Assembly (NCBI GenBank): GCA_964505635.1
Contig: CAZDIP010000002.1
Coordinates: forward strand, 37,736-101,735
Source of the DNA: an uncultured Candidatus Saccharibacteria bacterium
GTDB taxonomy: Bacteria > Patescibacteriota > Doudnabacteria > UBA920
DNA: 64,000 nucleotides
Reading direction: 5' to 3'
Shown: positions 6,848-40,125 of the stretch, piece by piece
Layout of the letters: each line of letters starts with the position of its first letter
Position numbering within the stretch: the stretch's first letter is position 1
Program-made: the position numbers and the translations under genes
Notes under the pieces: model-generated
What the model saw: only the letters and a program-made list of their open reading frames with translations
Told to the model about the DNA's origin: nothing
Database searches by the model: none

Positions 6848-6918
6848 ATATTGTTCGAGCGAAGTCGAGAACCAATAAAAAATTTTCTTCTCCACTTTGG
6901 TCGAAAACTAAAATTTTT

Positions 6919-7632: not shown

Positions 7633-7751
7633 AAATAAATATACATGAGTCCCAAAACTTCCCATTTCGAGTGAAACGAGAAATCCCTTAAAGCTTAAGC
7701 CCGTATGTTTAAGCGATTCCTCACTACGTTCGGAATGGTTTACACGGATTT

Positions 7752-8801
7752 TTGGACCCATGTAAATATAGAATGAAATATTTACCATACATATTAATTG
7801 CTTTAGTGATTTTTTTAGCCGCCGGTTTTTATTTAGACCGAGCTAACCGCTATACAGAGCCAGTCCCGCTTACCATTGATTCCAGTTCAAACAATATAAA
7901 TAAACTTATGCCCACGGAGTTAAAAAATTATGGCCCGGCGCCTGAATTTAAAGGCATCACCAAATGGCTTAATAGTGACCCGTTAACCCTTGAAGACTTA
8001 AAAGGCAAAGTTGTTTTAGTAGATTTTTGGACATACTCATGCATAAACTGCATTCGCACCTTGCCTTACGTAACCAAATGGTACGACACTTATAAAGACC
8101 AGGGCCTGGTAATTGTAGGCGTGCACACTCCTGAATTCGCTTTTGAAAAAGTAACCGAGAACGTGCAAACGGCAATAAAAAGATTTAACATAAATTACCC
8201 GGTAGCGCAGGACAATGACTTTCAAACCTGGAATGCCTACTCAAACCGCTATTGGCCCGCGCATTATTTAATAGATAAAGAAGGCAACGTAGTTTATACG
8301 CATTTTGGCGAAGGCAATTACGGTATTACCGAAAACAATATCCGCTATTTGCTCGGCCTAAATTCCCCCGCAAATACCAAAAATCCGACCTTCGGAAAAG
8401 TGGGAAGCCCTGAAATGTATTTTGGCTTAAGCCGCTTGGAAAATTTGAGTTCAAAACAAACAGCCTCGTCTCACCCAAATATTTATAATTTTCCCGATCA
8501 TTTAAAATTAAATGAATTCGCTTTAAACGGAGAATGGAAATTTGAAAACGAAAAAACCGTACTAACAAAAGGATCGGGAATTATTCGCTTAAAATTTAAA
8601 GCCGGCAAACTGCATATGGTAGCCTCGTCAGACAAGCCGCAAGACTTAAAAATTACTGTTGATGGAAAAATTAAGGCAGCTGTGAAAGTTCAGATGTCCG
8701 AGCTTTATACCTTATTTGATTCCAACGATTATTCGGAGCATACTATAGATATAGAAATTCCCGAAGCCGGTTTTGAGGCGTTTACTTTTACATTCGGATA
8801 G
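7752..8801 (+). CDS. TlpA/ResA-like thiol-disulfide oxidoreductase with about 140-aa C-terminal extension (DipZ C-terminal-like); likely true start at the Met near 7773
   Basis: Transmembrane anchor; VVLVDFWTYSCINCIRTLPYV (CxxC redoxin); the CcdA + redoxin + C-terminal domain architecture mirrors mycobacterial DipZ split into two genes. Confidence 0.8.
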   Translation: MDPCKYRMKYLPYILIALVIFLAAGFYLDRANRYTEPVPLTIDSSSNNINKLMPTELKNYGPAPEFKGITKWLNSDPLTLEDLKGKVVLVDFWTYSCINCIRTLPYVTKWYDTYKDQGLVIVGVHTPEFAFEKVTENVQTAIKRFNINYPVAQDNDFQTWNAYSNRYWPAHYLIDKEGNVVYTHFGEGNYGITENNIRYLLGLNSPANTKNPTFGKVGSPEMYFGLSRLENLSSKQTASSHPNIYNFPDHLKLNEFALNGEWKFENEKTVLTKGSGIIRLKFKAGKLHMVASSDKPQDLKITVDGKIKAAVKVQMSELYTLFDSNDYSEHTIDIEIPEAGFEAFTFTFG

Positions 8802-9529: not shown

Positions 9530-11500
9530 TTAATTTTTCACTCTTTTCAAAGACATGTAAATTACGCCGAACAATAAAATTAAAACCCCAGGATAAATAA
9601 TCATTCTAAAATCCCGGGATTTTTGTATTTGTCCTGCATTTAAATTTGAATAACTCTCCGACAAATCCGAATTTTGTTTATCTGTTTGGCTTAAAGCTAA
9701 AATTTGAGTCTGTAAATCCGCCAAAACAGATTGCATCTCCAAAATTTTTGCCTGTAAATCTTTTACCTGATTAATCAACTGACCAGCTTGACTGCGACTC
9801 AAAATTGACTGGCTCTTGTCAGTGTTTGTTATATTTTCTTCTAACAAAGCCTTTTCCTCTTCATCGGTAGTGGCAGACAAAACCAACGCATTTGGCTCTT
9901 GTGGGGTCAGCTGGGTTGTCCAAGCATATTTTTCACCGTCCAGACTAGCATACGACATGCCGGCTTTGGCCACCGGATAGCTCACCTCAAAAACCAATCG
10001 GCCAAAAGCATCAAATAACTTCAAAGTTTGTCCGGCATTGCTTAAACGAGCAGGCAAGTCATCTTCATAAACGACAAAGTAAGCTTTGCCCGGCAAAATT
10101 GTGCCTTGATGAAAAACTTTTTTCCTCCCGCCCAAAGTTAGGGTCATACCTTCCAAATCTATATTTTGATCAGTCAGATTATAAAATTCCACAAATTCTT
10201 CCTGTTCGCCTTCAGGTCTCGGCAAAATTTCACTAATTACTATTTTGCTTATTTCAGAAACTTGATCGTTCGGCAAATTGCGAGTCGGAATGCCCCAACT
10301 CCACTTATTATCTTTATTTTTTATCCAGGACAAATTTTCTTCGGCATCTTCATAAATTACAGAATCCAGCATTTTTTTCTGCGGAGAAAAAAGTTTCAGC
10401 CTTTCCTGTCCGCTGTTATTTAAAATTAGAGACTCTTTAGGGAAGTCTATTGCCAAAACTCCCATTGGCGGGATCAAAAAGCCTTCCGGCACCGCCCATG
10501 CGGATTCAGTAAAATCATCTTTAATGCCATCGGCAAAATAATACCCGCTTAAAGTTACCGTCGCGTAACCGGGATTATAAACTTCCGCCCATTCCCTGCC
10601 CTGGTCTTCGCCCAAAGGATTGGGAAAAATTTCGTTAATTTGCAAAAAATTACTGCTTTGTAAAGTTTCGGGTGCAGAACCGCTAAAGGAAGACCCGCCA
10701 CCCCCGCCGGAATTGGAAAAATTTCTTATCGGAGGCTGCCAAACTCCGTTAACCAGCTCAAAAATCCCGTCATCATAAGCTTCGGCCAAATACGCCGCCT
10801 GGTCTGCAAGGCTGCTGTCTGAAAAATATAAATTAACTTCATCACCGCCAGTATTGTTCAAAGCAAATGCCTCGGCGGGTAAAATAATTTTTTTAGTCTC
10901 TCCCGGCAAAATACTGCCTGACAAAATATAGGCGCTGCTGCCCGGCCCTGTGCCGGTATTTTTGTCGTCAATAATCCAGCCGTTTAGCAGCACCGGTTTT
11001 TCTTCGCTGCTTTTTATTTCCACCCATTCATTACCTTCATCTGATCCGGTTGGATTGGGTAAAAATCTAAAAATTTTAATATTCATACTTGTTGTTAAAA
11101 ATTCAGGCTGAGCCGGAACCGATGCATTAATGGTAAAAACTCCTTCATTTAAGTCGGAATAGCAAAAACTTTTTCTGGCTGTTCCCAAAGCCATGGTCAA
11201 TACCGGATTTTCCAACAAACTCCCGCAGGGAGCTGTAGCCGGAGAAGAATAAAACTGTCCGCTTACAGAAGACGAAAGCAAACTGACCCGGGTGGTGGTA
11301 ACTGCATTGAATTTCAGACCTTCGTCAGTCTGCAATTCTACGGTAAACACCTCCGACATAGTTTCAGGTTTTACTTTTTGAGGCTCAGATATAATTTTTA
11401 TCTTTACAGCCTCCGTTGTCTGGGTCGTAAAATAAATCGCCGCAAACGCAAAGAAAACCAAAAGCCCGCGCATTTTGGAAATATCCTTTTTAATATTCAT
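9530..11500 (-). CDS. Secreted, C-terminally membrane-anchored surface protein with three lamin-tail domains (LTD)
   Basis: 656 aa; signal peptide; LTD signatures FLPNPTGSDEGNEWVEI, INEIFPNPLGEDQGREWAEVYN, ISEILPRPEGEQEEFVEFYN; coiled-coil; C-terminal transmembrane helix. Confidence 0.75.
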   Translation of the reverse strand: MNIKKDISKMRGLLVFFAFAAIYFTTQTTEAVKIKIISEPQKVKPETMSEVFTVELQTDEGLKFNAVTTTRVSLLSSSVSGQFYSSPATAPCGSLLENPVLTMALGTARKSFCYSDLNEGVFTINASVPAQPEFLTTSMNIKIFRFLPNPTGSDEGNEWVEIKSSEEKPVLLNGWIIDDKNTGTGPGSSAYILSGSILPGETKKIILPAEAFALNNTGGDEVNLYFSDSSLADQAAYLAEAYDDGIFELVNGVWQPPIRNFSNSGGGGGSSFSGSAPETLQSSNFLQINEIFPNPLGEDQGREWAEVYNPGYATVTLSGYYFADGIKDDFTESAWAVPEGFLIPPMGVLAIDFPKESLILNNSGQERLKLFSPQKKMLDSVIYEDAEENLSWIKNKDNKWSWGIPTRNLPNDQVSEISKIVISEILPRPEGEQEEFVEFYNLTDQNIDLEGMTLTLGGRKKVFHQGTILPGKAYFVVYEDDLPARLSNAGQTLKLFDAFGRLVFEVSYPVAKAGMSYASLDGEKYAWTTQLTPQEPNALVLSATTDEEEKALLEENITNTDKSQSILSRSQAGQLINQVKDLQAKILEMQSVLADLQTQILALSQTDKQNSDLSESYSNLNAGQIQKSRDFRMIIYPGVLILLFGVIYMSLKRVKN

Positions 11501-11573
11501 ATGTTTTTTGTTTCTTGCTAAGTAAGCTAACTATAAATAGTATGGCTCTAAAATCATGGTCGGTCAAATCAAA

Positions 11574-12161
11574 TTATTCCAAAAGCTCTGCCCTTACAAT
11601 ATAACGTTTCAATGCAGTTCCCAAAGGCCAGGAAGTCTGCAAAGTTAAAATTTTCTTATCTTCCGTATCCTGACTAAGTAAGTAAGTATCTTGCGAGGAA
11701 GCAATAAATTTTTCCTTAACTTCATAAGTAAAAATTTGCCCCGATTCGCTGCTTACAATAATTTTTGCGCCCAATTCTACTCTGGGCAAAAGCGCAAAAA
11801 CCGTCTTGTATTCGCCGGGCGAAACTTTTAAATCCGAGGAGTGGCCGAAAATATAGGAATTTCCGGTTTCACCAAACTTGGCGGTGTTCGGATAGTGTAC
11901 CACGCCATACCTTAAGGCCGATTGAAACAAATTTTCATTTACCGCATCTACATATACCACGGGTGCCTCTATGCCCAAGGTTGGTATTAAAAGACTGTTG
12001 GATAAAATTTTATCTTTTTCTGAAAGTAAAATTTCCGGCTTGAGACTATGCGGTCGCAAACTATGTTTTAAATTCAAAAATACAAATTGCCAGTTGAGTA
12101 ACAGAACCAGCAAAATTAAAAAGCCAAAGATTATAACAAGTTTTTTTAAAACTACCTTCAT
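11574..12161 (-). CDS. Sortase-family protein with Ser at the catalytic Cys position (TLQTSWP instead of TLxTC)
   Basis: 195 aa; transmembrane anchor; sortase His motif NSYIFGHSS, 70 residues later LTLQTSWP (codon TCC), then KRYIVRAEL (conserved Arg); LIPTLGIEAPVV β-strand typical of sortases. Confidence 0.65.
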   Translation of the reverse strand: MKVVLKKLVIIFGFLILLVLLLNWQFVFLNLKHSLRPHSLKPEILLSEKDKILSNSLLIPTLGIEAPVVYVDAVNENLFQSALRYGVVHYPNTAKFGETGNSYIFGHSSDLKVSPGEYKTVFALLPRVELGAKIIVSSESGQIFTYEVKEKFIASSQDTYLLSQDTEDKKILTLQTSWPLGTALKRYIVRAELLE

Positions 12162-12193
12162 TAAATCCCTTTCAATTACAGCACAGGCAGTTT

Positions 12194-13741
12194 CTAAAGT
12201 TTGCTGTTAAATTTATATGGTAAATTTACCATTAAAATAACAACTAAAAAAACTACTAGCAGGGCACCTGCGCTCACGCCGGTTCTGGGCAATTGCGTAG
12301 CCTGGCCTAACACCATAGGCTTGTTTTCCGGCAAACCGAAATTTGCCGCGCCCGGTTGGTTGGTAAAATCTCCTGCCACCTGTCCGCTTAGCGGCACAAA
12401 AGTACTGCCGCCGCTCCCCCCAGACCCTCCGCCGCCGGATCCGCCGCCGCCCTCATCTAAGCTGCTCGTGCAAATCTGTCCTTGGGGACAAACAACCTGA
12501 ATTTGAACGCCAGATGTATTATTGGACAAATTCGGATCAGCCTCGGCTGACTGAACTGTAGCCGTATTTACAATACTGGTTCCAACTGAGACACTACTTT
12601 TAACTTCGGCCAAAATGGTTAAACTTGCGCTGCTCCCACTTGCCAAATTGCCGACTGTCCAGACATTGGGAACAAAACCACCTTGTGTGGAAGTGGAAGA
12701 AATAAACAAAAGTTCTGGGGGTAATACATCTGTCATTATTACGTTTTCTGCTGTATTAGGACCACTGTTAGACACGCTAAAAGTATAAATTAAAGTTGAG
12801 CTGGCTGTGCTAGTAGGAGCGCTGACCGTTTTCAACAAACTTAGATCAGCTACACCACCGCTCCCACCGCCGCCAGACGAACACTCCCCGTCCGTACACC
12901 CGCCTGACCCTTCCACAAAACGATTGCCAAAATTTATATCTTCGGCTGTAAAATTGTCAACAAAAACTTCATATTTATAGCCTGCTCCGGCTCCTGGTAA
13001 AGTCTGCTGCCAATTGTTCTGCAAAACTTCCCGTACTGTGTAATTTCCAGCCGGCAAAAATTCAAACTCGTAAAATCCAGTGGTGGTGGCAGTGGTGGTA
13101 ATTTTTTCTCCAAAATCATAAATAGCATTGCTGTTCTGGTCAATGTAGATTTGCCAGCCGCCAAGGCCTATTTCCGAGTTATTTTTTACGCCGTCGCCGT
13201 TTAAATCGTTAAACTTAATGCCCTGTATAAAACCCTCGCCAAAAACTTCCACCGTATTGGTCGTAACTGTAATTTTGCACTCATAATCCCCGCCCTTAAC
13301 CACTATGCCGCCGTCATGAGCCTGGGCCAGCTGCCCGGAAATTCCAGGCACATTTAACTTTACCCGCCAGTTATCCGCATTATCTAAAATAGAACTTAAA
13401 CTTGAAGTGGCCAGTGTGTCAGGCTCATTGGGCAAATCAATGTTTTTTATTTCCAAAAACGGACATAAATTCTCTTTACCTCCGACTGCCTCTAAGACGG
13501 TGTTATAAGTCGCTTGCTTAGAAGAAGTATCCAGCTGGACAGTATATGTTCTGCTTAAATTCTCACCCGGGTAAACGTTGCCAAAAGGAATCGCGGTGTC
13601 TGAAACCAAAAGCACCTGCAAAGCCGCGTTAACTTTCAAAATATTGCTCTGCAGCAGGCTTAAAACTGCTATCAAAACAACACTGGCAATTGCTGCCGAC
13701 AGCTTAACCAAATATTTAGTTTTCATATTTAACTGTCTCAT
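12194..13741 (-). CDS. Cell-surface protein with LPRTG sorting signal, DUF11 and SdrD-B-like repeat domains and Gly/Ser linkers
   Basis: 515 aa; N-terminal signal; FGNVYPGENL TasA/camelysin-like motif; DUF11-like (NSGPNTAENVIMTDVLP); SdrD B-like (FNDLNGDGVKN); C-terminus TQLPRTGVSAGALLVVFLVVIL + KFNSKL. Confidence 0.75.
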   Translation of the reverse strand: MRQLNMKTKYLVKLSAAIASVVLIAVLSLLQSNILKVNAALQVLLVSDTAIPFGNVYPGENLSRTYTVQLDTSSKQATYNTVLEAVGGKENLCPFLEIKNIDLPNEPDTLATSSLSSILDNADNWRVKLNVPGISGQLAQAHDGGIVVKGGDYECKITVTTNTVEVFGEGFIQGIKFNDLNGDGVKNNSEIGLGGWQIYIDQNSNAIYDFGEKITTTATTTGFYEFEFLPAGNYTVREVLQNNWQQTLPGAGAGYKYEVFVDNFTAEDINFGNRFVEGSGGCTDGECSSGGGGSGGVADLSLLKTVSAPTSTASSTLIYTFSVSNSGPNTAENVIMTDVLPPELLFISSTSTQGGFVPNVWTVGNLASGSSASLTILAEVKSSVSVGTSIVNTATVQSAEADPNLSNNTSGVQIQVVCPQGQICTSSLDEGGGGSGGGGSGGSGGSTFVPLSGQVAGDFTNQPGAANFGLPENKPMVLGQATQLPRTGVSAGALLVVFLVVILMVNLPYKFNSKL

Positions 13742-13744
13742 AAT

Positions 13745-16582
13745 CTAGTTGGAAATTGGCGCTTCCGAAACCAACTGGTTGTCGGGGTTTTGTTCCGGCT
13801 CTTTTGCCGCGGAAACCTCGTCCAGGGGTTTTTCTGGAGACTCTTCTATTTTAACCGGCTCATCCGGTTTGGGCGCTTTAGGTGTGTTTGGCTCCTCCTC
13901 GGTTAAGGCTGGTTTTTGAGCGTCTTGTGTTAAATCAGAAGCAACGGTTTCTTCATCTGCCGCCTTTGTGTCAATAATTTCTGGCTCAGCCGGCTCTGTA
14001 GCTGGCTCTTGGTTTAAAGCCGGCTCTAAACTTATGTCAGGCACAGCGCTTGCCATAACCTCTTCTTCCGAAGGCTCAGAGTCAAACACAATGCTGACGC
14101 TGGGCGCGGTATTTGAATCTATAAATTCGTCGTTGCTTTCCCCGGGGCTGGGATCGGGGTCTATCCAATTATTTGTTCCGTCAGGCATGCGGGTAAAAGA
14201 TTTGTTATCAGGCACGGATGCGCCGTAGTCGTAAGTTCTTTGGTCCACCAAAGAAGCTCCTTGCCAAAAATGTCCGTTGTAAAGCTTAACGGTATCGGTA
14301 CCGTCGTTGTCTAAATCAAAATCAGTGTCGCCCTCCCGATAAACAACCAAAAAACCGCCAGGTGCCACAGTTGTCGTGCCGGTATTGGTGTTTTCGGGTT
14401 TAATAAACAACTCATGGTAATTGTACAGGTTATAAGTAGCGCTTAAGCTGTCCAAACGCGCGTTATGCAAAGCGTCAGCACGAGTAAAAATAGCCTGCCA
14501 TTTTAAATACCTGCTATCCGGCAAGCCGGCAGCATTTAAATCCATGCCGCTTATATCGTCGCAAGCGCTAAAAGCGGAAAAATTCACCCCGTCGTTGGAG
14601 GTTGCGGCCTGAATGCAGACGTTACCGCTTAGGGAATTGCTTTCCGTCCAGGTTAAATTCTGCCAGTCAGCCCGATTGCCCTCGCCCGCGTCCAAAACCG
14701 TTTCTAAAGTACCGCTGCCAACCCCGCTTGAAAAAACCACGCTGCTTGAGCTGATTCCCAAATTAGAGGTTAAGCTGCTGCTCGCAAAATCCGAGTTGCT
14801 GGTCCAGGTTTTATTTTGTGCACTTCCCGGAGGTAGAAAATCATCGTACAAAACATAACCTTCCAAACTGAGCGGAGTGGAAGATCCATTATAAATTTCT
14901 ACAAATTCACCATCTAAACTGCCGCCAACACTACCTTGATCTGAGCCTGAAGGATTAGGTAAAAATTCATTTATCAACAACTGGTTTAAAGGGGAAAATA
15001 CCGGGCCGCAAGAAATAACTGAAGGTAATGGCCTGAAATTTACGGTCACGTTGCTGTCTAAGTCAATTGCGGGGCCGGTTAACGAAGTGCCTTCTTTTGC
15101 ATAAATTGCCAAAAGCGTACGGTTGGAATTAATATGCACATCCCCGCTTTGAGCGAAAAGTACCACGTCCCCAAGGTCAGAATTATTGCTTTCTGTTTCA
15201 ATGGCTGCGTCGTCGCCCGATTTGGGCAAAGAAGTGGAAATGAGCAAAAAAGTCCCTTTAGTGCCCGCGCCGTTAAATGCCACGTTGGCGCGGATGTCAA
15301 TTACCCCCTCCACAATAATTACGCCAAAGCTGTCGGCAAAAGCAGGATCCTGATTTATAACCACGTTGCTGTCTATTTTTAGATTACCATGCACATACAA
15401 AGTACCGTGCACATTTACTATATTATTGTTGCCAATTTCCAGGTTTCCCATAATTTCCGAAGGTCCCAAGTCTATAATTCCGCTGCTGCCTGGTATAACC
15501 AAACTTCCTAAAACCGTACCGCCGTCGTTGGCTTTGTCCTGCCAAAAAGCATTGTTAATTACCGGCAAGTCCTGGGCGGCTGACCCTGTGTTCGCACTCC
15601 CCGAAATAGTAAAGTTGCTGCTTTCTATGCTGCCGGAAACCGTCACGTCCCCGTTTATGTTTCGGTTTGCGCCTCCTCCGTTGGCTTCTAAATTATGATT
15701 GCCTTTTACTTGCCCGTTCACCGTAACATTAGCGGAAACATAAATATCGCCAAAGCTGTCGTTTGGTCCCGCAGCCATTAATGCTGTGTTTTCCGGGAAA
15801 TCAATATTTATTGGCTCGCACAAATCCGCCTGGGCAAACTGGTAAATTTTTATGTTAATCAGGCTAAAATGGCTGCCCACGCTGTCGCCGTCACAAGCCA
15901 CAGCCTTAACCACGCTGGTTTGGCTTACGGGCAAAGGCGGAATGGAATTTTTAAGGCCGCCGTTAGGGCCGCCGCAGTAAGGGTCGGAAAATACGTCCGG
16001 ATCAGTGCCTAAACCAACTGTATAAAAAATATGCGTGGCGTCTGAATCGCTGTCGCTAAATTCCACGTTAATGGAACTTGCGTAATTACCGCCGTCAGTA
16101 TTGTTCCAGCCAATATCCCCGGGCGGGGTTAAAACCGGCGGATCTATTTGCGCTAACGCGGCAGTGGTATTAATAATGTGCGCCTCAAAAGCCTGGAACA
16201 AAGGCAATAAAACCAAAACCGGAATTAATACCACGGCGGTATTATAAACGGTTTTAGATAAAAACTTTTTGAACAATGGTGGTTTTACCGTATTGGCCTG
16301 CGGCTTTAGTCCGTGGCGTTCGAAAATTTCCGCTTTTAAAACAGCCTCATTTACCACCCGCACCGGCACCCTCACTGCTTTTGGTTTTACTCTGCTAATT
16401 ACAAAGGGACTTACAATGCTTTTGTTATTTTTTGTCCTTACAATCTTTTTTACCACAGGCTTACCAACAAAAGTTTTTAAAGCCGCTGATTTTCGCTTTG
16501 CGGTCTTTGCCCGCGCCAAAACCAGACTTTTTTTCAAAGTCCTTGTTTTAACAACTTTTAATTGTTTGTCTTTTGCGGGCAT
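13745..16582 (-). CDS. Giant surface protein (945 aa): Lys-rich N-terminal tail, SipW-cognate-like signal/anchor, β-helix-like repeats, LTD domain, acidic Pro/Glu-rich C-terminus
   Basis: N-terminal roughly 100 aa Lys/Ala-rich; hydrophobic segment with FQAFEAHIINTTAALAQI (matching AFSAFEAHVINVTAR of the neighbouring genes); LTD motif INEFLPNPSGSDQG...EFVEIYN. Confidence 0.7.
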   Translation of the reverse strand: MPAKDKQLKVVKTRTLKKSLVLARAKTAKRKSAALKTFVGKPVVKKIVRTKNNKSIVSPFVISRVKPKAVRVPVRVVNEAVLKAEIFERHGLKPQANTVKPPLFKKFLSKTVYNTAVVLIPVLVLLPLFQAFEAHIINTTAALAQIDPPVLTPPGDIGWNNTDGGNYASSINVEFSDSDSDATHIFYTVGLGTDPDVFSDPYCGGPNGGLKNSIPPLPVSQTSVVKAVACDGDSVGSHFSLINIKIYQFAQADLCEPINIDFPENTALMAAGPNDSFGDIYVSANVTVNGQVKGNHNLEANGGGANRNINGDVTVSGSIESSNFTISGSANTGSAAQDLPVINNAFWQDKANDGGTVLGSLVIPGSSGIIDLGPSEIMGNLEIGNNNIVNVHGTLYVHGNLKIDSNVVINQDPAFADSFGVIIVEGVIDIRANVAFNGAGTKGTFLLISTSLPKSGDDAAIETESNNSDLGDVVLFAQSGDVHINSNRTLLAIYAKEGTSLTGPAIDLDSNVTVNFRPLPSVISCGPVFSPLNQLLINEFLPNPSGSDQGSVGGSLDGEFVEIYNGSSTPLSLEGYVLYDDFLPPGSAQNKTWTSNSDFASSSLTSNLGISSSSVVFSSGVGSGTLETVLDAGEGNRADWQNLTWTESNSLSGNVCIQAATSNDGVNFSAFSACDDISGMDLNAAGLPDSRYLKWQAIFTRADALHNARLDSLSATYNLYNYHELFIKPENTNTGTTTVAPGGFLVVYREGDTDFDLDNDGTDTVKLYNGHFWQGASLVDQRTYDYGASVPDNKSFTRMPDGTNNWIDPDPSPGESNDEFIDSNTAPSVSIVFDSEPSEEEVMASAVPDISLEPALNQEPATEPAEPEIIDTKAADEETVASDLTQDAQKPALTEEEPNTPKAPKPDEPVKIEESPEKPLDEVSAAKEPEQNPDNQLVSEAPISN

Positions 16583-20744: not shown

Positions 20745-20962
20745 CCAAAACCCGAGAATTAGCTCTAAAAACCGTAAATACTAGTTATTTTCTTCATTAC
20801 TGTTACAATTAATCCTATTTAATAAATCGTTTAATGCTTGCATGCATTATATAACGCGTAATAAATAAAAATGTTGCTCTTAAATTTTTATGTACAAAGA
20901 AAAGCGGCCCACACCCCCGAAAGGATGTGAGCCGCCGCCGTGTTCGCCCGGTTAGGGGCGCT

Positions 20963-21529
20963 TTAGGCTTGGTTGTTGCGATTGCTGCGAAGTCGCCCGA
21001 TCGCGATCAGCGAGAGGCCGATGAAGGCGAGCGCGGCGGTGTAGGGTTCAGGAACATCTTGATCTGGTACCCTATCGCCATACAAACGAAACTGCATGTT
21101 CGCGTTGGCGTTGGTTGCAGTACCAGCAAAAACAGCCGAAACCGCAACATTGAAGTTGCTTTGGAAATTGGCCACATAGTCAACCACCGAGATGGCGATT
21201 TGACCTGTTGATCCGTTGAGCGGCCGGTTCACATCGTTGACCACGAGACCGCTCAAATCCCACGGCAGCAATGGCGAATCCAGAGCGAAGGTCGCTGACC
21301 CGGGCGGATTGAAGGGGTCATATGTCACATCCAACGCGTAGTTGAGCTCAATGGTCAAATTCGTAAACCCGACCGCTGAACCCAGCCCGGTGCAAGTCGT
21401 TGAACCATTCGGAGGCACGTTGGTAGCTGTGCAGGAAGACGACGAGATCATCGCTCCTTGCGCCGGAAGAGCAAGTGTCGCGACGGCCATGAGAAGGCCC
21501 GCGAGAAACGAACACACTTTCTTACGCAA
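20963..21529 (-). CDS. PEP-CTERM sorting-domain secreted protein (GC-rich)
   Basis: 188 aa; signal peptide; C-terminus VPEPYTAALAFIGLSLIAIGRLRSNRNNQA (PEP motif, transmembrane helix, basic tail); about 60% GC. Confidence 0.75.
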   Translation of the reverse strand: MRKKVCSFLAGLLMAVATLALPAQGAMISSSSCTATNVPPNGSTTCTGLGSAVGFTNLTIELNYALDVTYDPFNPPGSATFALDSPLLPWDLSGLVVNDVNRPLNGSTGQIAISVVDYVANFQSNFNVAVSAVFAGTATNANANMQFRLYGDRVPDQDVPEPYTAALAFIGLSLIAIGRLRSNRNNQA

Positions 21530-21630
21530 TCTTTTTTCCTCTTATATTTTTTTCACGAGCAAGCCATCAGCCTGCCCGACGAAACTTTGACCTAAGGGCA
21601 TGGATATCCATGTCTGCCCTCAAATCAAAA

Positions 21631-21660
21631 CAGTCGCCCGAAGGCGGCTGTTTTTGTTTG
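21631..21660. terminator. Bidirectional hairpin terminator (CAGTCGCC-CGAA-GGCGGCTG + T-run)
   Basis: Stem-loop flanked by A-runs and T-runs between the two minus-strand PEP-CTERM genes. Confidence 0.55.
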
Positions 21661-21859
21661 CGTATACATACTATAATATATTTTTTTAAAAAAAGCAAGT
21701 AGTTTGTATAAATTTTTATGGCTTATTTATGCCTTTTTAAAGGCTCACATGGACTGAGCCTTTAAAAAATCCAAAAAAAATAAAAGCAGCTCCCTAGAAT
21801 CCTTTGTCAGGACCTAAGGAGCCGCAGAGTGCGCTAGTCTGCCTTCTTGTTAGAAGACG

Positions 21860-22555
21860 CTAGCTATTACGGGTAGGGCGACGGAGCCGCCAGTGGGCTC
21901 CAAGAGCGAAAAGTGAAGCGCCGATAACGGCGAAAGTGCCGGGCTCCGGCACACCTTCGTCGTTTGGGGGTGGCACGGTGGCCACCACCGGCTGAGTTCC
22001 AAACCCCAGCGCCACGTACGTCAAAGTCGTGTCCACCGTTGCGCCTGGGATATTGTAAACCAACTGAACTGAGCCCTGAGCGAACGGGTTATGAGGCCCG
22101 TTCCCCAAAATGGATGCATTCCCGGTGTACACGCCGCCCGGGCCGGGTTGACCAATGAGCACATCGTCCGGTCCCGAAGACCCAAGCGCGGTCGTGAGAA
22201 ACCCAGGCCCGGACTGGTACCAGTCCGGATTTCCCAAGACAACGACGAAGGTGCCATCGCTGGCTACGTCTATCATGGTACCAGTGACAGACGAGAGCGT
22301 GCCCACCAGGCCGCCCAAGACCGTGAAGTTCAGTTGCGAAACGCCGCCCATGACGCTGGGCGGATCAGCCAAGTTGTTCGTCAACGACAACGTCAACGTG
22401 TTCGCGCTGAACGTGTAGTTGATTGTCACGTCCTGCGCCTGCCCACCGACCGTTTGGGTGAAGTTGATCGTTGCCGCCTGTGCCGGCAAAGACGCCAGCA
22501 ACAGGAAGACGATGATTACGGCCATCGCCAGCCGCTTGCCCTTATGCTTTCGCAT
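21860..22555 (-). CDS. PEP-CTERM sorting-domain secreted protein (GC-rich)
   Basis: 231 aa; signal peptide MRKHKGKRLAMAVIIVFLLLASLPAQA; C-terminus VPEPGTFAVIGASLFALGAHWRLRRPTRNS. Confidence 0.75.
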   Translation of the reverse strand: MRKHKGKRLAMAVIIVFLLLASLPAQAATINFTQTVGGQAQDVTINYTFSANTLTLSLTNNLADPPSVMGGVSQLNFTVLGGLVGTLSSVTGTMIDVASDGTFVVVLGNPDWYQSGPGFLTTALGSSGPDDVLIGQPGPGGVYTGNASILGNGPHNPFAQGSVQLVYNIPGATVDTTLTYVALGFGTQPVVATVPPPNDEGVPEPGTFAVIGASLFALGAHWRLRRPTRNS

Positions 22556-22852
22556 TAGGCCTCCTTCAAACTAACACGATTTGCCGCTTGCCTCCGGGCA
22601 GACTCGAGTTCTGCATACCCTGCCCAGAAGGCAAACAAAAGCTGCCTCTTGTTAGAAAACAGCCTTAAAGCATGTAAATTATACATAATTATAAACAAAA
22701 AATCAATCCTTGCCTTGACTAAGCGGCTCACATAAGTTACAATATAACGTTCAAAAAGGAGGAAACTAGCGAAATCTAGGAACTCGTTTTTGTCGTTCTG
22801 CCCCGCAGCGAGCAGGGCATACCAGAAACCAGAAAAAACAGGAGACACTCAA

Positions 22853-23686
22853 ATGAAGGCTTTTGCCTTTTTTATTTCTGTACTCGCGCTGGCGGTCACG
22901 CTCAGTGCTGCGCCTACAATCATGGTGGAAACCACCCTGGCACCCAATGCGTTTGGAAGCCCAAGCTATCCGGCCTGGGAAACCAACGCGGTCAACGCTA
23001 TGATTGGCGGCCTTACGAGCAATGGGACACCCGGCACCCCCACGTACTTCCAAACCCTGGGAGGACCCGTTCCGGCCTCCTGGTTGACTGTGACGTCCTT
23101 CCCATCCTGGCTCGGAACCGCCGACCCAGGAACTACCTTCGGACCGGCATTTGCAAGTGAACTCGGTAACAGAGGCGCGTTCCCACTCTACATCAACGGC
23201 AACGGAACACAATTCTCCATCAGCCAGCTCGCCTTCAACGCATTCAGCACCGACCCCGGCAATCTGCTCGGGTTCAGCTTTGCGGTTGGTTCGTACAACT
23301 ACGGAACTGGCTACGTCGGTATTCTGAAGGGTGGTGACAACACCCTCGGAACCGGTGACGACACCTTCATTACCGCCGGTCCCAATACGCAGATGGTCGA
23401 TGCACTTGCCGGAAGGGGAAGCGGCAACGCGCTCTGGCCGTGTGGACCGGGGGATCTCTCCCCCTGCGCCACAACCGCGGAACGCCAAGCTGCAATCGAT
23501 AGCATGGCAGCTAATATGGCAGGCTACTCCTTCACGGGCACCTACACGCTGATGGGTGCGACTGGCGGCGAGCTCGCAAGTGCGAGCGCAACCATCTACA
23601 CCGACGGAGAGGTTCCCGAGCCAGCCACTATGGGACTCATCGGTACCGCGCTCATCGGCCTCGCTCTGGTGCGCCGCCGCTCCTAA
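22853..23686 (+). CDS. PEP-CTERM sorting-domain secreted protein (GC-rich); start set at MKAFAFF, which is preceded by AGGAG
   Basis: Signal peptide MKAFAFFISVLALAVTLSAAP; C-terminus VPEPATMGLIGTALIGLALVRRRS; the ORF track's longer ORF begins at 22790. Confidence 0.75.
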   Translation: MKAFAFFISVLALAVTLSAAPTIMVETTLAPNAFGSPSYPAWETNAVNAMIGGLTSNGTPGTPTYFQTLGGPVPASWLTVTSFPSWLGTADPGTTFGPAFASELGNRGAFPLYINGNGTQFSISQLAFNAFSTDPGNLLGFSFAVGSYNYGTGYVGILKGGDNTLGTGDDTFITAGPNTQMVDALAGRGSGNALWPCGPGDLSPCATTAERQAAIDSMAANMAGYSFTGTYTLMGATGGELASASATIYTDGEVPEPATMGLIGTALIGLALVRRRS

Positions 23687-23795
23687 GCTGCATCAACGGA
23701 GATTTCGCTCAACCAACACAAAAGGCCGGACGCCCAACAAGCGCCCGGCCTTTTTACAACAAACAACACACAAAGAACAAAGCCACCCTTTCCCC

Positions 23796-23823
23796 CACTA
23801 TATTACTAGATAGTAATATAGTG
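23796..23823. repeat. 28-bp perfect palindrome (copy 2 of 3), abutting the stop codon of the YerC-like gene
   Basis: Identical to 19168-19195. Confidence 0.9.
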
Positions 23824-24315
23824 CTATTGATCCAACATCTTCTTTGCCGAATTTTCCGAATATTTTTTTAAAAGCTTTTTGTCCAAAGCTGCTATCCCCG
23901 CCTTTAACAAAACGCCGGCTACTGTCTTACGCTTCGTTTTGTTTAAAACTGGATTTTCAAAACTCTTTATAATTTCTCTTTGCTTTTTTAACTTAGCTCC
24001 GGCTAAACGTTCTAGGCTTTCATAAGCCTTACGTAGACCGTCGCCTTTTTCCATTAGAATATTATTAATTTTAGCGACTGTGCTGGGTGTAACTTTTACT
24101 TCTTGTTGAATTTGTTCGTAACTCTGGCCGCTTAAAAGCCTGTGGGAAATTTCCAAACGTTTAGCGAACATTTTATATTCCGTATGAGTAAATAAATCCT
24201 TAAACAACAACCTAATATCTTCTTTACTGTTTAATACAGTAAAAACCGCCCATAAATTGTTTATATACAGGCCAAATTCTTTGGGATCCAATTTTCTCCT
24301 GGAAATTTTTGTCAT
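23824..24315 (-). CDS. TrpR/YerC/YecD-like DNA-binding protein with C-terminal extension
   Basis: 163 aa; LFKDLFTHTEYKMFAKRLEISHRLLSGQSYEQIQQEVKVTPSTVAKINNIL matches the Trp-repressor-like YerC/YecD helix-turn-helix pattern; ORF bracketed within 1-2 nt by palindrome copies 2 and 3. Confidence 0.6.
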   Translation of the reverse strand: MTKISRRKLDPKEFGLYINNLWAVFTVLNSKEDIRLLFKDLFTHTEYKMFAKRLEISHRLLSGQSYEQIQQEVKVTPSTVAKINNILMEKGDGLRKAYESLERLAGAKLKKQREIIKSFENPVLNKTKRKTVAGVLLKAGIAALDKKLLKKYSENSAKKMLDQ

Positions 24316-35515: not shown

Positions 35516-35777
35516 GTTCGTGTATGAATTTCAAAAGCCAGAAGAAGCGCAGGCCGCGCTCGGCCACCTCTCGTGGCTGCAGTTTAACGGACACAACGTG
35601 TCCGGCTGCGCCGAAAACGGCTCTTCCGTCACCATCACGGTCTGGTTTCGCCGCCACGACCCAGATCAAGTAGAAGAGCTCCGCAACGAGCTCGGCGCCT
35701 TAAGCGCCACCCCCGCCCAACCGACGCAAAACGACGATCGCCCCCAAGCGACCGCCGTTTTCATTTTGTTTACTTAA
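35502..35777 (+). CDS. Hypothetical small protein, GC-rich (about 60%)
   Basis: 91 aa starting MQELEFVYEF; strong GC shift relative to neighbours; overlaps the 3' end of the upstream ORF. Confidence 0.3.
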   Translation: MQELEFVYEFQKPEEAQAALGHLSWLQFNGHNVSGCAENGSSVTITVWFRRHDPDQVEELRNELGALSATPAQPTQNDDRPQATAVFILFT

Positions 35778-37125
35778 ATTTTTCTATCTGTTCCGTGACT
35801 TCCTTGGTTTTATTTTCAAGCAAATCCTTACTGCTCGCCTCAACGTTCAGCCTAATTAACGGTTCAGTGTTGGAGGCGCGCAAATTAAATCTCCACTCCG
35901 GGTAATTAAAATCCACGCCGTCAATCTCATCTATTTTAGCATCGGCATAAAAACTTTTAATGCCCGCTAAAGTTTGTTTTAAATCTCTAACTTTAAAATT
36001 TATTTCCTCTGAAATAAAAAATTTCTCTCTAAGCGGAGCCAACACTTCCGAAAAAGCCCTGTCCGCCTGCGACAAAATATCCAAAACAGCCAAAAAAGGA
36101 ATCAGTCCGTTGTCCAAATAAAAATTTTCCTTAAAAAAATAATGCCCCGAAGTTTCGCAGCCAAATACCACATCTTCTTTTATCATCCGCTCTTTTATAA
36201 ACGAATGCCCGGCCTTGTTCATAACCGAAACACCTTTATTTTTTTCCACCAGATAATCTATAACCCTCACTACCCGTGTGTCGTGAAGTATTTTCCCGCC
36301 GGGGTATTTTTTTAAATAGTACTCGGCCAATAAAGCATTTATGTATGCCGGGGTAACAAACTCCCCTTTTTGGTCAAAACAAAAAAACCGGTCAGCATCC
36401 CCGTCCCAGGCCACGCCCAAGTCAGGCTTGTGTTCTTTTATAGCCTCTATAGTTTCTGCCCGGTTGGAAGGAAGCAAAGGATCGGAAGGACCTTTGGGAA
36501 AATTGCCGTCCAAATGGCCGTTTAAAACTTCCACAAATTCCACCGGCAAAATAGTTTTTAATTTTTCTATGGCCGGATTAATCATGCCGAAATTGGCGTT
36601 AGCCACAATCTTAAAAGGTTTAATGCGGCTAATATTAAAGCTTTTTAAGACATGATTGTAATACGCTTCGGTAATGTCCGCCTTTTCAACACTTCCCCTG
36701 TTTGGCAAATCTTCTAAAAGCTGGCCGGAAATGACCATATCCCGAATTTGGTAAATGCCGCTGTCTCCGGAAATTGGCCTGCCTTTTTCCCTGACCATTT
36801 TTAACCCGCCATATTCCTTGGGGTTGTGGCTGGCGGTAATTTGGATGCCCCCGTCAACCGGCAAAGTCGCAGCCGCAAAATACAGCTGGTCAGTGGACAC
36901 CAGGCCAATGTCTATAACATCAACACCGGTCTTAGTCAGACTGTCTATGGCTGCTGCCTTAAACTCAGCCCCGGAAAGCCTCATGTCACAACCCACCACA
37001 ACCTTTTTTGGCTTTAAAAAAGCCGCGTAAGCCCTGGCTATCTTATATACAATATCCGCATTGATTTGCGTAGGATATACCCCCCGAATGTCATAGGCCT
37101 TAAAAATACTTTGATCTATATTCAT
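35770..37125 (-). CDS. Phosphoglucomutase/phosphomannomutase (α-D-phosphohexomutase family)
   Basis: 451 aa; active-site TASHNPKEYGG, metal-binding DGDADR, four-domain layout. Confidence 0.9.
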   Translation of the reverse strand: MNIDQSIFKAYDIRGVYPTQINADIVYKIARAYAAFLKPKKVVVGCDMRLSGAEFKAAAIDSLTKTGVDVIDIGLVSTDQLYFAAATLPVDGGIQITASHNPKEYGGLKMVREKGRPISGDSGIYQIRDMVISGQLLEDLPNRGSVEKADITEAYYNHVLKSFNISRIKPFKIVANANFGMINPAIEKLKTILPVEFVEVLNGHLDGNFPKGPSDPLLPSNRAETIEAIKEHKPDLGVAWDGDADRFFCFDQKGEFVTPAYINALLAEYYLKKYPGGKILHDTRVVRVIDYLVEKNKGVSVMNKAGHSFIKERMIKEDVVFGCETSGHYFFKENFYLDNGLIPFLAVLDILSQADRAFSEVLAPLREKFFISEEINFKVRDLKQTLAGIKSFYADAKIDEIDGVDFNYPEWRFNLRASNTEPLIRLNVEASSKDLLENKTKEVTEQIEKFK

Positions 37126-37224
37126 AAACTTATTTTAACATAAAATACAACAGGCAGGCTTTGTCCTAAGGCACGCTCACGCGCCCCGAACAAAGCCTGC
37201 CCTGCAAAGATAATTCAATGAAGA

Positions 37225-37506
37225 TTACGCGTTATTGCGACTTGCGGCTTTTGACCACTCCGCGTAAGTCCCAAACACTGTCAGTTTCCCAACCTGCACC
37301 CGAATCTTCTTATGAGGCCCCACACCCTCACCCTGCGGACGAAAATGCCCATAAGATTCCACCGCGCGATGCAGCAGTCCGTTTTCACATTGAGAAATAT
37401 GAACGGGTTCTGGTTCGTGTCCCCTAGTCAACTTCTTTCGCAGTCTAGAGGGAAACACATCTCCATCCTCATCTCCAAGAGAATACATTCTCATACAATC
37501 CTCCAA
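37225..37506 (-). CDS. Hypothetical protein in GC-rich islet
   Basis: 93 aa ORF in about 50-58% GC DNA; no motif; weak call. Confidence 0.2.
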   Translation of the reverse strand: MEDCMRMYSLGDEDGDVFPSRLRKKLTRGHEPEPVHISQCENGLLHRAVESYGHFRPQGEGVGPHKKIRVQVGKLTVFGTYAEWSKAASRNNA

Positions 37507-37994
37507 CTGATTCTACACTAGATCAGCGCCCAAAGAGCGCTCAAACGTCTACTATTTTATTCCTATTCTCCCAAACCGTCAACAGTGGATAAATTGTCTT
37601 GCGCGGAAAAATAAACAGGAATATATTAAAAATGTTATGATCTACCGCACTGCTAAGATGCGCAACCTACTTTTTTGGCTACGGCGCCGCAGGGCGCCAG
37701 CAAGGAGGCTCACATGAGACACGCGAAAACCCCCTTTCGTGGGTAACTGAGGCAGTGAAAGTCTCGCCTAAATAATATATTCTACAAGGCGAGGCAAATA
37801 GCACTCTAACCCACGAAAGGGGGTGATCACAAGCAATACGGGGCAATCCCCGGGCGCACCGCTACCTTGTCGGTCGCGCCTTTTCTTTTTACCAAAATAA
37901 AAACCGCCTTTGGCGCGGATATCGGGCGGTTCCAAAGCGTTGGAACCGCCCCTCTTGCATCCTTACAGACGCTTATTTACTCCCGAGCTTCACC

Positions 37995-38768
37995 CTAGTT
38001 AGTCAGAGTAAAATTCACGTCTATTTGCGTAACCACCTCCACCGCTTCCCCGTTAAGGAGCGTGGGGCGGTAAACCCACTGCCTTACTGCGTCTATGGCA
38101 GCGGGCACAAGCAGCGCGTGGCCTGACACAAGCTTAAGCTCCGAAATGGTGCCGTCACGGCGAATTATAGCCGTAAGCCGCACTAATCCCGAAACCCTGC
38201 TTGCTTTGGCCAATGCCGGGTACAATGGTTTTGGCTGAAAAACAAGCTGCGCGGCCATTACCTCGCCTCCCCTTTTAACCCTTACGGGTTCTTCGAAAGG
38301 CTTAGGTTTTGGCTGTGCTACAACCTGCTCTTTTGGCGGGGACGGAATACCTGCAACATTCCCGCATACCGCCTCGGGACAAAAAGGAACGCTGCCGCTG
38401 CCAGGACTGGTTGCGTGCCCGTAAACCAATTCCGGTGCTCCAAGCTCCCGGTCATTAATTTCCGCCACTTGAGCGGGAATTCTTGACGGAGCCGTAAACA
38501 CCTTAGTCGGCCTAACTGCAACAACCTGCTCCTGGTTTGAGCTGTTTGGACTCCTCGCCCCGTCTTGCTTTACAGTCTCCGGTTTTTGCGCCGGCAACTG
38601 CGTCAGCTCAACAGGGAGAAAAATCCTTTCCTTCTGTCTTGCGGGCTTAACCGCGCCCTTAACGCTGCTGGCCAAAACCAACAACGCCAAAACAGCCATT
38701 ACCACTACCACAGCCATTGGAAAACTCCACCGGCTGCCTGTTTTGTACGACAAATTGTTTTCGAACAT
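37995..38768 (-). CDS. TonB C-terminal-domain protein (energy-transducer TonB-like), GC-rich
   Basis: 257 aa; N-terminal transmembrane anchor, Pro-rich linker; C-terminal KPLYPALAKASRVSGLVRLTAIIRRDGTISELKLVSGHALLVPAAIDAVRQWVYRP matches the TonB-C fold signature. Confidence 0.7.
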   Translation of the reverse strand: MFENNLSYKTGSRWSFPMAVVVVMAVLALLVLASSVKGAVKPARQKERIFLPVELTQLPAQKPETVKQDGARSPNSSNQEQVVAVRPTKVFTAPSRIPAQVAEINDRELGAPELVYGHATSPGSGSVPFCPEAVCGNVAGIPSPPKEQVVAQPKPKPFEEPVRVKRGGEVMAAQLVFQPKPLYPALAKASRVSGLVRLTAIIRRDGTISELKLVSGHALLVPAAIDAVRQWVYRPTLLNGEAVEVVTQIDVNFTLTN

Positions 38769-39042
38769 CTTCTTAACCCTCCTAACAGGTTTTAAAGATG
38801 CCCACTTCAGGCCAGCTGTTCCACCTCTATACTCCTCTAGGCGCTCAGTGCTTTAAGGATACCGTTTCTGCCGGTGAGAGGATGGCCTTAGCCCAAAGTT
38901 TGCGCAGGGGGTGTTTAGCCCCGTAGCTTTCTTTAATTTAAGAATACACCCGTTATATTTTTAGTCAAATAAATGCCAAAATAATACTTGGCTAAACTGA
39001 TTTTGTGTTTTATACTATTCACTGATCATTAAACACTAGAAC

Positions 39043-40125
39043 ATGTCCTTCAAAATCGGCATTGTCGGTCTGCCTAATGTAGGCAAAAGTACCCTCTTTA
39101 ACGCCATTACCAAAAGCAAAGTAGAAGCAGCCAATTACCCGTTTGCAACCATAGACCCAAACGTGGGCGTGGTTGCTGTGCCTGACGAAAGACTAGCTAA
39201 ATTAGCTGAGTTAGAAAAGTCGGAAAAAGTCGTGCCTACCACAATTGAATTCGTAGACATAGCAGGCTTGGTTAAAGGCGCCTCAACTGGCGAGGGTTTG
39301 GGTAATAAATTCCTTTCCCATATACGCGAAGTGGACGCTATAATGGAAGTAGTGCGGTTTTTTGAAAACAAGGACATTATTCATGTAAACGGCAACGTAG
39401 ACCCAAAAAGGGATATGGAAACCATTGGCATAGAACTTCAGCTTGCAGATTTGCAGAACGTTGATAACCGCCTTTCATCTATTTCCCGCCAAGCCAAAGC
39501 CGGCGAAAGGGACGCGGTTATAAAAAAACAGGTTTTAGAAAAATACAAAGCTGCTTTGGAAAAAGGCGAAATGGCTAATACGGTTATATTAACCGATGAA
39601 GAAAAAGAACACAGCAAAGACATTCAGCTTTTAACCACCAAACCGTTTTTATTTGTGGCCAACAGCGAATACGATATGGCAAATAAGTCATACAAGACCG
39701 ACGCGTCATATAAGTCCTATTTGCTCGACGCAATTTTAATAGATGCGCAAATAGAAAGCGAACTGGCTGAACTTAGTGATACTGATCGCGAGGAATATTT
39801 AAAAGAGCTCGGCCTGCCGGAGTCAGGCTTAGACAAAATTATAAAAACCGCATACAAAACTTTAGGCCTTATAACCTTTATAACCGCCGGGCCAAAAGAA
39901 AGCAAAGCCTGGACATGCACAAAGGGAAGCAAAGCTCCCCAGGCAGCAGGAAAAATACACACTGATTTTGAAAAAGGTTTTATACGCGCGGAAGTTATAC
40001 AATGGAATAAGCTTTTGGAAGCAAATGGCTACGGCGGAGCCAGGGCAAAAGGCTGGCTCAGGACTGAAGGCAAGGAGTATGCGGTACAAGATGGGGACGT
40101 GGTGCACTTTTTGTTTACCCCGTAG
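39043..40125 (+). CDS. ychF: Ribosome-binding ATPase YchF (Obg-family)
   Basis: 360 aa; GIVGLPNVGKSTLFNA P-loop, DIAGLVKGAS, C-terminal TGS domain. Confidence 0.95.
   Translation: MSFKIGIVGLPNVGKSTLFNAITKSKVEAANYPFATIDPNVGVVAVPDERLAKLAELEKSEKVVPTTIEFVDIAGLVKGASTGEGLGNKFLSHIREVDAIMEVVRFFENKDIIHVNGNVDPKRDMETIGIELQLADLQNVDNRLSSISRQAKAGERDAVIKKQVLEKYKAALEKGEMANTVILTDEEKEHSKDIQLLTTKPFLFVANSEYDMANKSYKTDASYKSYLLDAILIDAQIESELAELSDTDREEYLKELGLPESGLDKIIKTAYKTLGLITFITAGPKESKAWTCTKGSKAPQAAGKIHTDFEKGFIRAEVIQWNKLLEANGYGGARAKGWLRTEGKEYAVQDGDVVHFLFTP

Follow-up and report, generated by a model that had tools for sequence, protein, structure and literature searches.

A Bryobacterales-type TonB gene in a Patescibacteria genome: origin, retention and possible new use

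TonB, ExbB and ExbD together form a marker of the diderm cell envelope, and their absence is cited as evidence that the candidate phyla radiation (CPR, or Patescibacteria) lacks an outer membrane: all three families have been reported missing from CPR as a whole, and microscopy suggests no Gram-negative envelope in these bacteria (PMC6744442). Why, then, does a tonB-like gene stand between pgm and ychF in a 64-kb stretch of DNA (contig CAZDIP010000002.1, positions 37,736 to 101,735; hereafter the window) assembled from an uncultured Candidatus Saccharibacteria bacterium? A literature search turned up no TonB described from Saccharibacteria or CPR. Here we describe a protein that is of the TonB family by descent and fold, though not a demonstrated component of a Ton system, whose gene is of Bryobacterales type, sits at the same locus in diverged relatives and has been altered in those parts that connect TonB to its motor.

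Identity, fold and origin of the gene

The gene, its product and the sequence upstream of it comprise the following features (coordinates are those of the window).

37995-38768, minus strand: tonB-like coding sequence (CDS), an open reading frame (ORF) of 257 aa with a Pfam TonB_C match
38661-38726, minus strand: predicted N-terminal transmembrane (TM) helix, aa 15-36 (hydrophobic stretch; AlphaFold2 helix, confidence score pLDDT 81-93)
38253-38660, minus strand: predicted disordered linker, aa 37-172 (pLDDT 41-66, no secondary structure)
38364-38381, minus strand: Cys pair C130-x4-C135 (CPEAVC) within the linker, from the alignment
37998-38252, minus strand: TonB C-terminal domain (CTD), aa 173-257 (Pfam, AlphaFold2 pLDDT 87-96, Foldseek)
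38769-38936, minus strand: 5' leader of the tonB-like gene, ~166 nt, delimited by nucleotide conservation
38763-38803, minus strand: predicted hairpin over the Shine-Dalgarno (SD) sequence and start codon, from minimum-free-energy and consensus folds
38941-38968, minus strand: putative sigma-70-like promoter TTGACT-16-TATTCT, from a consensus scan

The original prediction, made from the letters alone, had recognised a TonB-like ORF of 257 aa placed between pgm (35770-37125, minus strand; four PGM_PMM domains in its product by Pfam) and ychF (39043-40125, plus strand), and both the ORF and its placement are confirmed. The TonB CTD that it proposed is matched by the Pfam model PF03544 (TonB_C) with E=2.8e-15 and 56.9 bits against a cutoff of 24.6 bits, over aa 179-255 and all 79 model positions, and NCBIfam TIGR01352 (tonB_Cterm) scores 26.7 bits, marginally below its cutoff of 27.1. 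Sequence matches of the CTD in the PDB include TonB2 (2k9k, E=2.5e-5), E. coli TonB (1u07/2gsk) and 1xx3. When an AlphaFold2 model, computed from a 59-sequence alignment, was compared with the PDB by Foldseek, the top 16 matches were all TonB or FusB CTDs, with 6i97_D superposing on the CTD at an rmsd of 1.4 A over 84 columns (TM-score to target, TMt, 0.83). TolA (PF06519) reaches 13.9 bits at aa 202-236, far under its cutoff of 25. An N-terminal TM anchor had likewise been proposed, and the predicted helix at aa 15-36 aligns with the TM segment of the acidobacterial proteins described below. The Pro-rich spacer is not borne out as described: Pro makes up 14% of the linker, and its longest Pro run is 2.

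A foreign origin of the gene had also been suspected and is borne out, the closest outside family being the Bryobacterales-type TonB of Acidobacteriota. Once a few full-length relatives are set aside, the closest homologs belong to the ~250-aa TonB proteins of Bryobacteraceae/Solibacteraceae, to which the last ~97 residues are 61-70% identical; 79 of 80 genome matches are of Acidobacteriota type (CTD 61-69% identical) and the sole full-length close one is titled Candidatus Saccharibacteria. Over all comparisons the CTD is 61-79% identical to Bryobacterales CTDs. Alignment with the Bryobacterales proteins runs from end to end, including an invariant MF start (usually MFE(Q)), at a full-length identity of ~40%, and therefore the whole gene is of Bryobacterales type and not the CTD alone. 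The Bryobacterales gene order is secD-secF-tonB-exbB-exbD-exbD, as confirmed by Pfam. By tblastn, exbB follows tonB in 73/79 acidobacterial loci and in none of 13 loci of the CPR type (that is, those related to the window), and neither ExbB nor ExbD is encoded anywhere in these 13 loci (176 kb including the window). Because of this distribution and the general lack of the family in CPR, we place the direction of transfer into CPR.

A metagenome scan with the CPR-type alignment yielded, among the matches listed, only acidobacterial CTDs and no new CPR-type loci. Neither viral contigs, searched with the tonB-like gene, nor a phage collection, searched with the 870-bp gap between tonB and pgm, contained any relatives, so that these searches give no hint of a phage vector or mobile element. 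Two observations were made on the side. Among the top-scoring library proteins (300-1,000 aa, e.g., P0242, P0247 and P0252), many carry three to six tandem TonB_C-like stretches, and such multi-CTD architectures seem, from their sequences, to be common in donor-related diversity. A further TonB-like gene (P0370, L172 244-1020; 49% GC) lies on a CPR-like contig of 36% GC, where its neighbours are a tRNA, a holA-like gene, polA, tsaE and pilB; this copy retains an SLLLQ motif in its TM segment and a poly-Pro tract, and also has a Cys pair.

Retention, remodelling and a conserved leader

The host genome is assigned to CPR/Patescibacteria, and most likely to Saccharibacteria, because an uncultured Candidatus Saccharibacteria metagenome-assembled genome (MAG) shares the synteny (TonB 78% identical, ~78% nucleotide identity over ychF-tonB) and because the YchF next door finds its best named matches in MAGs labeled “Patescibacteria group” and “Doudnabacteria.” The TonB-like protein is matched at 100% by P0001 on a 235-kb NCBI contig. 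Its other full-length relatives, namely P0121, P0002, P0003, P0018, P0048, P0062 and P0073, are 96, 78, 74, 45, and ~36-43% identical to it and stem from different samples in assemblies of ENA, NCBI, Logan, and JGI. Wherever flanks exist, the gene adjoins ychF upstream of pgm or of an HAD-type PMM gene, followed by trpS and RNase J; a further member, P0289, adjoins rpsF-ssb. This shared synteny in independent assemblies rules out a chimeric assembly and indicates long vertical inheritance. The ORF is unbroken in all lineages with dN/dS (the ratio of non-synonymous to synonymous rates) ranging from 0.07 to 0.23, and against L001 and L005, two loci of the same group, the values are 0.12 for the CTD, ~0.20 for the linker and 0.20-0.23 overall, which points to purifying selection.

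These results do not agree with the GC-rich islet of the original prediction, if taken as a recent insertion, since the same ychF-tonB-pgm/PMM slot is occupied in at least seven diverged lineages from independent assemblies and the gene is under purifying selection. The composition had been overstated as well: in place of 55-58% GC over ~1.6 kb, we measured 51.1% for 37140-38800, 53.7% for the ORF and 55% for the best 500-bp bin, although the region is still among the top ~3% of same-size windows (mean of the window 43.3%). The tonB-like gene exceeds its flanks by ~10 points here and by 10-15 points in low-GC relatives, whereas in the syntenic 62%-GC relative L007 it is compositionally normal. 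We attribute the elevated GC in part to the foreign origin, of which it is a residue, and in part to an Ala/Pro/Gly/Val/Arg-rich composition (GC12, 0.53). As an aside, L007 (20.8 kb of a GCA_964561365.1 contig) has 62% GC against 41-45% in the other relatives while keeping the gene order efp-rpsR-ssb-rpsF...ychF-tonB-pgm-trpS-RNase J of the lower-GC relatives, an unusually broad GC range within one syntenic CPR group.

What has changed in the protein became clear from a motif comparison of eight CPR-type with 51 acidobacterial sequences. In E. coli TonB, the SHLS motif (Ser16-x3-His20) is the motor-binding element of the TM segment (PMC12204202). By alignment, the Ser-x3-Gln of the donors corresponds to Ser16-x3-His20; the pattern Sxxx[HQN] is found in 43/51 acidobacterial sequences (as SxxxQ) and in none of the eight CPR-type sequences, the protein studied here having S15-F-P-M-A19, and the full-length acidobacterial exceptions mostly retain Gln or Glu at that position. 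The longest Pro run has a median of 3 in CPR-type copies vs. 11 in acidobacterial ones, and both the poly-Pro tract and the Gly-rich GGVPGG segment of the donors are gone. Instead, a Cx3-5C pair is present in all eight CPR-type sequences and in 0/51 acidobacterial ones, with C130 and C135 invariant in a seven-sequence CPR-type alignment; this linker pair may form a disulfide. The CTD is nearly unaltered relative to the donors, unlike the TM motif and the linker. The loss of the polar TM residue, the loss of the poly-Pro tract and the Cys pair are derived traits of the CPR-type copies. The original prediction was right about the TonB identity and overlooked the loss of the TM residue and the poly-Pro tract, the Cys pair, and the conserved 5' leader to which we now turn.

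The leader diverges by 1.8-6.6% between the window and L171/L001/L004/L005, while the CDS, which has a good SD, diverges by 23-24.5% from L001/L004/L005 (binomial p ~1e-10 for the contrast), and the ychF-proximal half of the ychF-tonB spacer is unalignable. At its 3' end, the predicted hairpin pairs AACCU with the SD AGGGUU, and GGGCAUCUU with AAGAUGUUC, which contains the start codon. In the distant relative L007, which starts with GUG, the 5' arm carries the U-to-C change that matches it, and L089 preserves the arrangement as well. When a covariance model of the leader was run on distant loci, the 3' hairpin was all that it matched (L089 E=0.018, L007 E=0.24), the upstream “aptamer-like” part giving no alignment to the leaders of L007, L089 and L170. 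Within a long-range leader helix, two base pairs are changed on both sides among close relatives (G-C to A-U; U.G to A-U). The TTGAC of the promoter-like site, which probably drives the gene, keeps its position in L001/L004/L005 and is also present in L007, L089 and L170. No second copy of the leader was found in the window by covariance model search. At gathering thresholds Rfam reports only two tRNAs in the window, and at E<=5 only a spurious snoRNA in 37000-39100; SRP, 6S, RNase P, tmRNA and riboswitches were considered as non-coding RNAs of the leader or the gap and rejected as they had no Rfam or ARAGORN match. We propose that the leader acts as a dedicated cis-regulatory element controlling translation initiation, and it is a candidate for a new cis-regulatory RNA without an Rfam family.

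Surroundings of the gene

The partners of TonB were sought in the window and its relatives. The remark of the original prediction that no exbB/exbD lies nearby holds for the entire window by both Pfam and tblastn: none of its ~55 ORFs matches the MotA_ExbB, ExbD or TonB-dependent receptor families (including PF00593/PF07715). Its description of a monoderm-type, sortase-bearing genome is equally in keeping with a sortase at 11574-12161 and the CPR lineage. Further features of the window, including those of the 870 bp between tonB and pgm, are as follows.

11574-12161, minus strand: sortase, from the ORF scan of the window
37894-37951, minus strand: tonB terminator, in which a perfect 12-bp hairpin (an inverted repeat, 37924-37951) is followed by a smaller one and a U-run
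37650-37890: GC-rich structured element (z = -7 on both strands)
37225-37506, minus strand: small ORF, 93 aa from TTG or 89 aa from ATG 37494, with a GGAGGA SD
37153-37201, minus strand: hairpin with a U-rich tail just upstream of pgm, 12-bp core extended to ~20 bp

The window also encodes LTD/DUF11/SdrD-type surface proteins, CcdA-thioredoxin genes, RNase J and an rpsF-ssb-(rpsR)-efp cluster. In 6236-8801 and 9530-16582, a cluster of extracytoplasmic thiol-redox genes (thioredoxin-like, CcdA/DsbD_TM, AhpC/Redoxin-Thioredoxin_10) adjoins the sortase and large LTD/DUF11/SdrD_B surface proteins; this cluster could be relevant to the conserved Cys pair in the linker of the TonB-like protein. Two PEP-CTERM-type proteins (21860-22555, minus strand; 22790-23686, plus strand) are encoded within ~20850-24025, where the GC content of the window peaks (56-60%). 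The 298-aa one is without close CPR orthologs and has its nearest named relatives among PEP-CTERM proteins of Acidobacteria (~50-58% identity), which adds to the window a second envelope gene of acidobacterial type that is associated with diderms.

The region downstream of the gene had been described as untranslated and GC-rich with strong hairpins. Structure is indeed present, with a fold z of -7 on both strands for 37640-37995 and of -5.2 (-44.6 kcal/mol) for 37126-37240, but “untranslated” is doubtful given a plausible small gene. The hairpin of the tonB terminator keeps its position in L001/L005 with an altered stem and loop, followed by a T-run, and beyond this terminator conservation ends. 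The structured element at 37650-37890 contains a 16-nt perfect inverted repeat (37729-37744 / 37809-37824, 64 nt apart). It has no counterpart in L171, whose flanks are 94-96% identical, nor in L001/L005 or any other relative, no Rfam or phage match, and no repeat elsewhere in the window. A reading of the 16-nt inverted repeat as a miniature inverted-repeat transposable element or repetitive extragenic palindrome (MITE/REP) was rejected, there being no other copies in the window and no visible target-site duplication. On the plus strand, this element is flanked by a -10-like promoter of the TG-extended kind (37612-37641) and by a hairpin resembling a terminator, with a T-run (~37853-37890).

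The small ORF at 37225-37506 is preceded by a promoter-like site, TTGACG-17-TAAAAT at 37554-37582 (consensus scan), and has no Pfam or NCBIfam match. Compared with window positions 37201-37518, L171 (2619-2923) has a different ORF body of 90 aa with the promoter stretch and the terminator hairpin retained, and the two products share only a short C-terminal motif, K.RV..VFGT..E[FW]. The small ORFs between tonB and pgm/PMM show no homology across the relatives at E<=1e-3, which suggests a hypervariable slot downstream of tonB. The hairpin just upstream of pgm (37153-37201), which is the terminator hairpin of this slot, is kept in L171.

Proposed explanation, its rivals and known systems

The explanation that we consider best, and on the whole probable by a modest measure, is an acquired Bryobacterales-type TonB that has been vertically kept and now serves as a motor-independent, membrane-tethered binding module. 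An ancestor of a Patescibacteria (Saccharibacteria-like) subclade would have taken tonB from a Bryobacterales-type acidobacterium, tonB alone out of the donor tonB-exbB-exbD-exbD operon, and its descendants would have inherited the gene vertically at the ychF-pgm/PMM locus. The recipients most likely lost transduction of the proton motive force, because the polar TM residue and the poly-Pro rod are gone and there are no motor genes nearby. The N-terminal helix would anchor the protein in the membrane, and the donor-type CTD would be displayed outside the cell on a flexible linker of ~135 residues with its new Cys pair. TonB CTDs bind Ton boxes by beta-strand addition, and such complexes (2gsk, 2grx and 6i97) occur among the fold matches; the CTD studied here could bind its partner in the same way, be it a Ton-box-like peptide or possibly peptidoglycan. 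Synthesis would be adjusted at translation initiation through the leader, whose 3' hairpin, as predicted, sequesters both the SD and the start codon.

Several points weigh against this proposal. His20 of E. coli TonB tolerates some substitutions, and the loss of the polar TM residue is suggestive rather than a proof of uncoupling. The predicted membrane anchor might instead be a cleavable signal peptide. The sequence inspected amounts to the 64-kb window, part of a 235-kb contig in a genome likely near 1 Mb, and ~110 kb of related loci, so that ExbBD, TolQR, MotAB or receptors may be encoded elsewhere. The leader fold is no more stable than its shuffles (z = -1.6), and its covariation is drawn from very few sequences. 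As to a single acquisition, a neighbor-joining tree clusters the CPR-type copies with bootstrap values of 27% at full length and 0% for the CTD alone; monophyly is thus weakly supported, so that more than one acquisition is possible. Each CPR-type CTD is 70-79% identical to Bryobacterales CTDs vs. 64-66% to other CPR-type CTDs, a pattern that agrees with a slowly evolving donor family and long branches leading to the recipients, and that repeated transfer could give as well. The L172 copy, in its different context, may represent an intermediate, or else a gene acquired separately.

How do other explanations fare? One would be a canonical Ton system, with ExbB/ExbD and receptors encoded elsewhere in the genome and an outer membrane or an equivalent second barrier. 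A strongly conserved CTD under strong purifying selection, the complete three-domain architecture and the presence of diderm-typical PEP-CTERM proteins in the same window are what such a system would predict, and the sequence inspected is a small part of the genome. We nevertheless hold it to be improbable, as ExbB, ExbD and TonB-dependent receptors are all missing from the window and ExbB/ExbD from every CPR-type locus, the motor-coupling polar residue is missing from all eight CPR-type sequences along with the poly-Pro rod, the context is one of sortase and LPXTG-type surface proteins, and CPR are reported to lack the three Ton families and, by microscopy, a Gram-negative envelope (PMC6744442). 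At the other extreme, the gene might be a non-functional vestige or neutral cargo of horizontal transfer, in line with the judgment that the incomplete Ton systems found in monoderm phyla probably have no function (PMC12204202) and with the lack of ExbB/ExbD partners in the CPR-type loci. Such an outcome is hard to reconcile with an ORF intact in all lineages at dN/dS of 0.07-0.23, with one locus retained down to ~36% identity, and with a leader diverged by 2-7% against 24% for the CDS next to a good SD and terminator, and it seems to us slightly more improbable still than a canonical system. The thought that an acidobacterial fragment was joined to a CPR contig during assembly or binning, to which the GC ~10 points over the flanks and the acidobacterial closest outside relatives might lead, is effectively refuted: the ychF-leader-tonB and pgm/PMM-trpS junctions recur across different samples, in assemblies from ENA, NCBI, Logan, and JGI, the best acidobacterial full-length identity is only ~40%, and the CPR-type copies bear derived features of their own.

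Saccharibacteria are episymbionts, which lends some interest to a host-directed factor, whereby an epibiont would use its host-type CTD to engage the Ton boxes of a Bryobacterales host, on TonB-dependent transporters or on other proteins, so as to attach to it or to interfere with or exploit its uptake. The CPR-type CTDs are nearer to Bryobacterales CTDs than to each other, which would mean that the donor-type binding surface is preserved, and the PEP-CTERM protein, whose nearest named relatives are acidobacterial, would fit a long cohabitation. Set against this are the hosts of cultured Saccharibacteria, which are Actinobacteria, and the location of Ton boxes facing the host periplasm, which would oblige the CTD to cross the host outer membrane; preservation of the CTD may also be explained by general fold constraints. 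We judge a host-directed role to be unlikely, if a shade less so than a canonical Ton system. A bolder version has a Saccharibacteria-like clade of soil epibionts, having captured the primary TonB of Bryobacterales, display the motor-uncoupled CTD as a “molecular plug” for the Ton-box sequences of acidobacterial outer-membrane transporters under control by a new, riboswitch-like leader. This is a long shot, but if true it would identify Acidobacteria as the hosts of this uncultured CPR clade and present a new way of exploiting the Ton system of a host.

To return to the preferred reading of a motor-independent binding module, a TonB that is conserved, selected and apparently under regulation of its own, and by these signs clearly functional, in a lineage thought to lack an outer membrane, altered in its motor-connecting parts, would be a force transducer that has probably been turned to a new use. 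It also indicates a specific donor, and possibly an ecological partner, in Bryobacterales for an uncultured CPR clade. For genome surveys it is a caution that a lone TonB_C match is insufficient evidence of an outer membrane.

Among known systems, the nearest is the Bryobacterales TonB itself (e.g., L011 9530-10294), which has the same length (~250-258 aa), MFE start, single TM segment, linker and CTD. It differs in having SxxxQ in place of SxxxA in the TM segment and an 11-residue poly-Pro tract with GGVPGG in place of the CX4C pair, and its gene is followed by exbB-exbD-exbD after an upstream gap of 48 nt, whereas the gene studied here stands alone between ychF and pgm behind a conserved leader of ~166 nt. 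With the TonB proteins of E. coli, Pseudomonas and Vibrio (1u07, 2gsk, 6i97_D, 2k9k) it has in common the three-domain architecture, the CTD fold (TM-score to target 0.67-0.83) and the YP motif at ~20-25% identity, but the His20-equivalent and SHLS motif and the Pro-Glu/Pro-Lys rod are missing, no motor or receptor genes are seen in the sequence inspected, and the host lineage is thought to be without an outer membrane. TolA (PF06519) is related in fold and architecture, however Foldseek matches to TolA are at E>0.7 here and helical domain II is absent. Incomplete or orphan Ton parts occur occasionally in monoderms such as Actinobacteria, Bacilli, Caldiserica and Dormibacteria, a survey in which CPR is not mentioned (PMC12204202). 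Those cases likewise hold a TonB-family gene without a classical outer membrane or a complete Ton system, so that the phenomenon is already known in outline; they are described there as being of unknown origin and probably without function, whereas here the donor clade can be named and the gene is clade-conserved, selected, remodelled and equipped with a leader of its own. What is new, therefore, is the CPR host, the identifiable donor and operon, the selected retention across a clade, the specific remodelling and the conserved leader.

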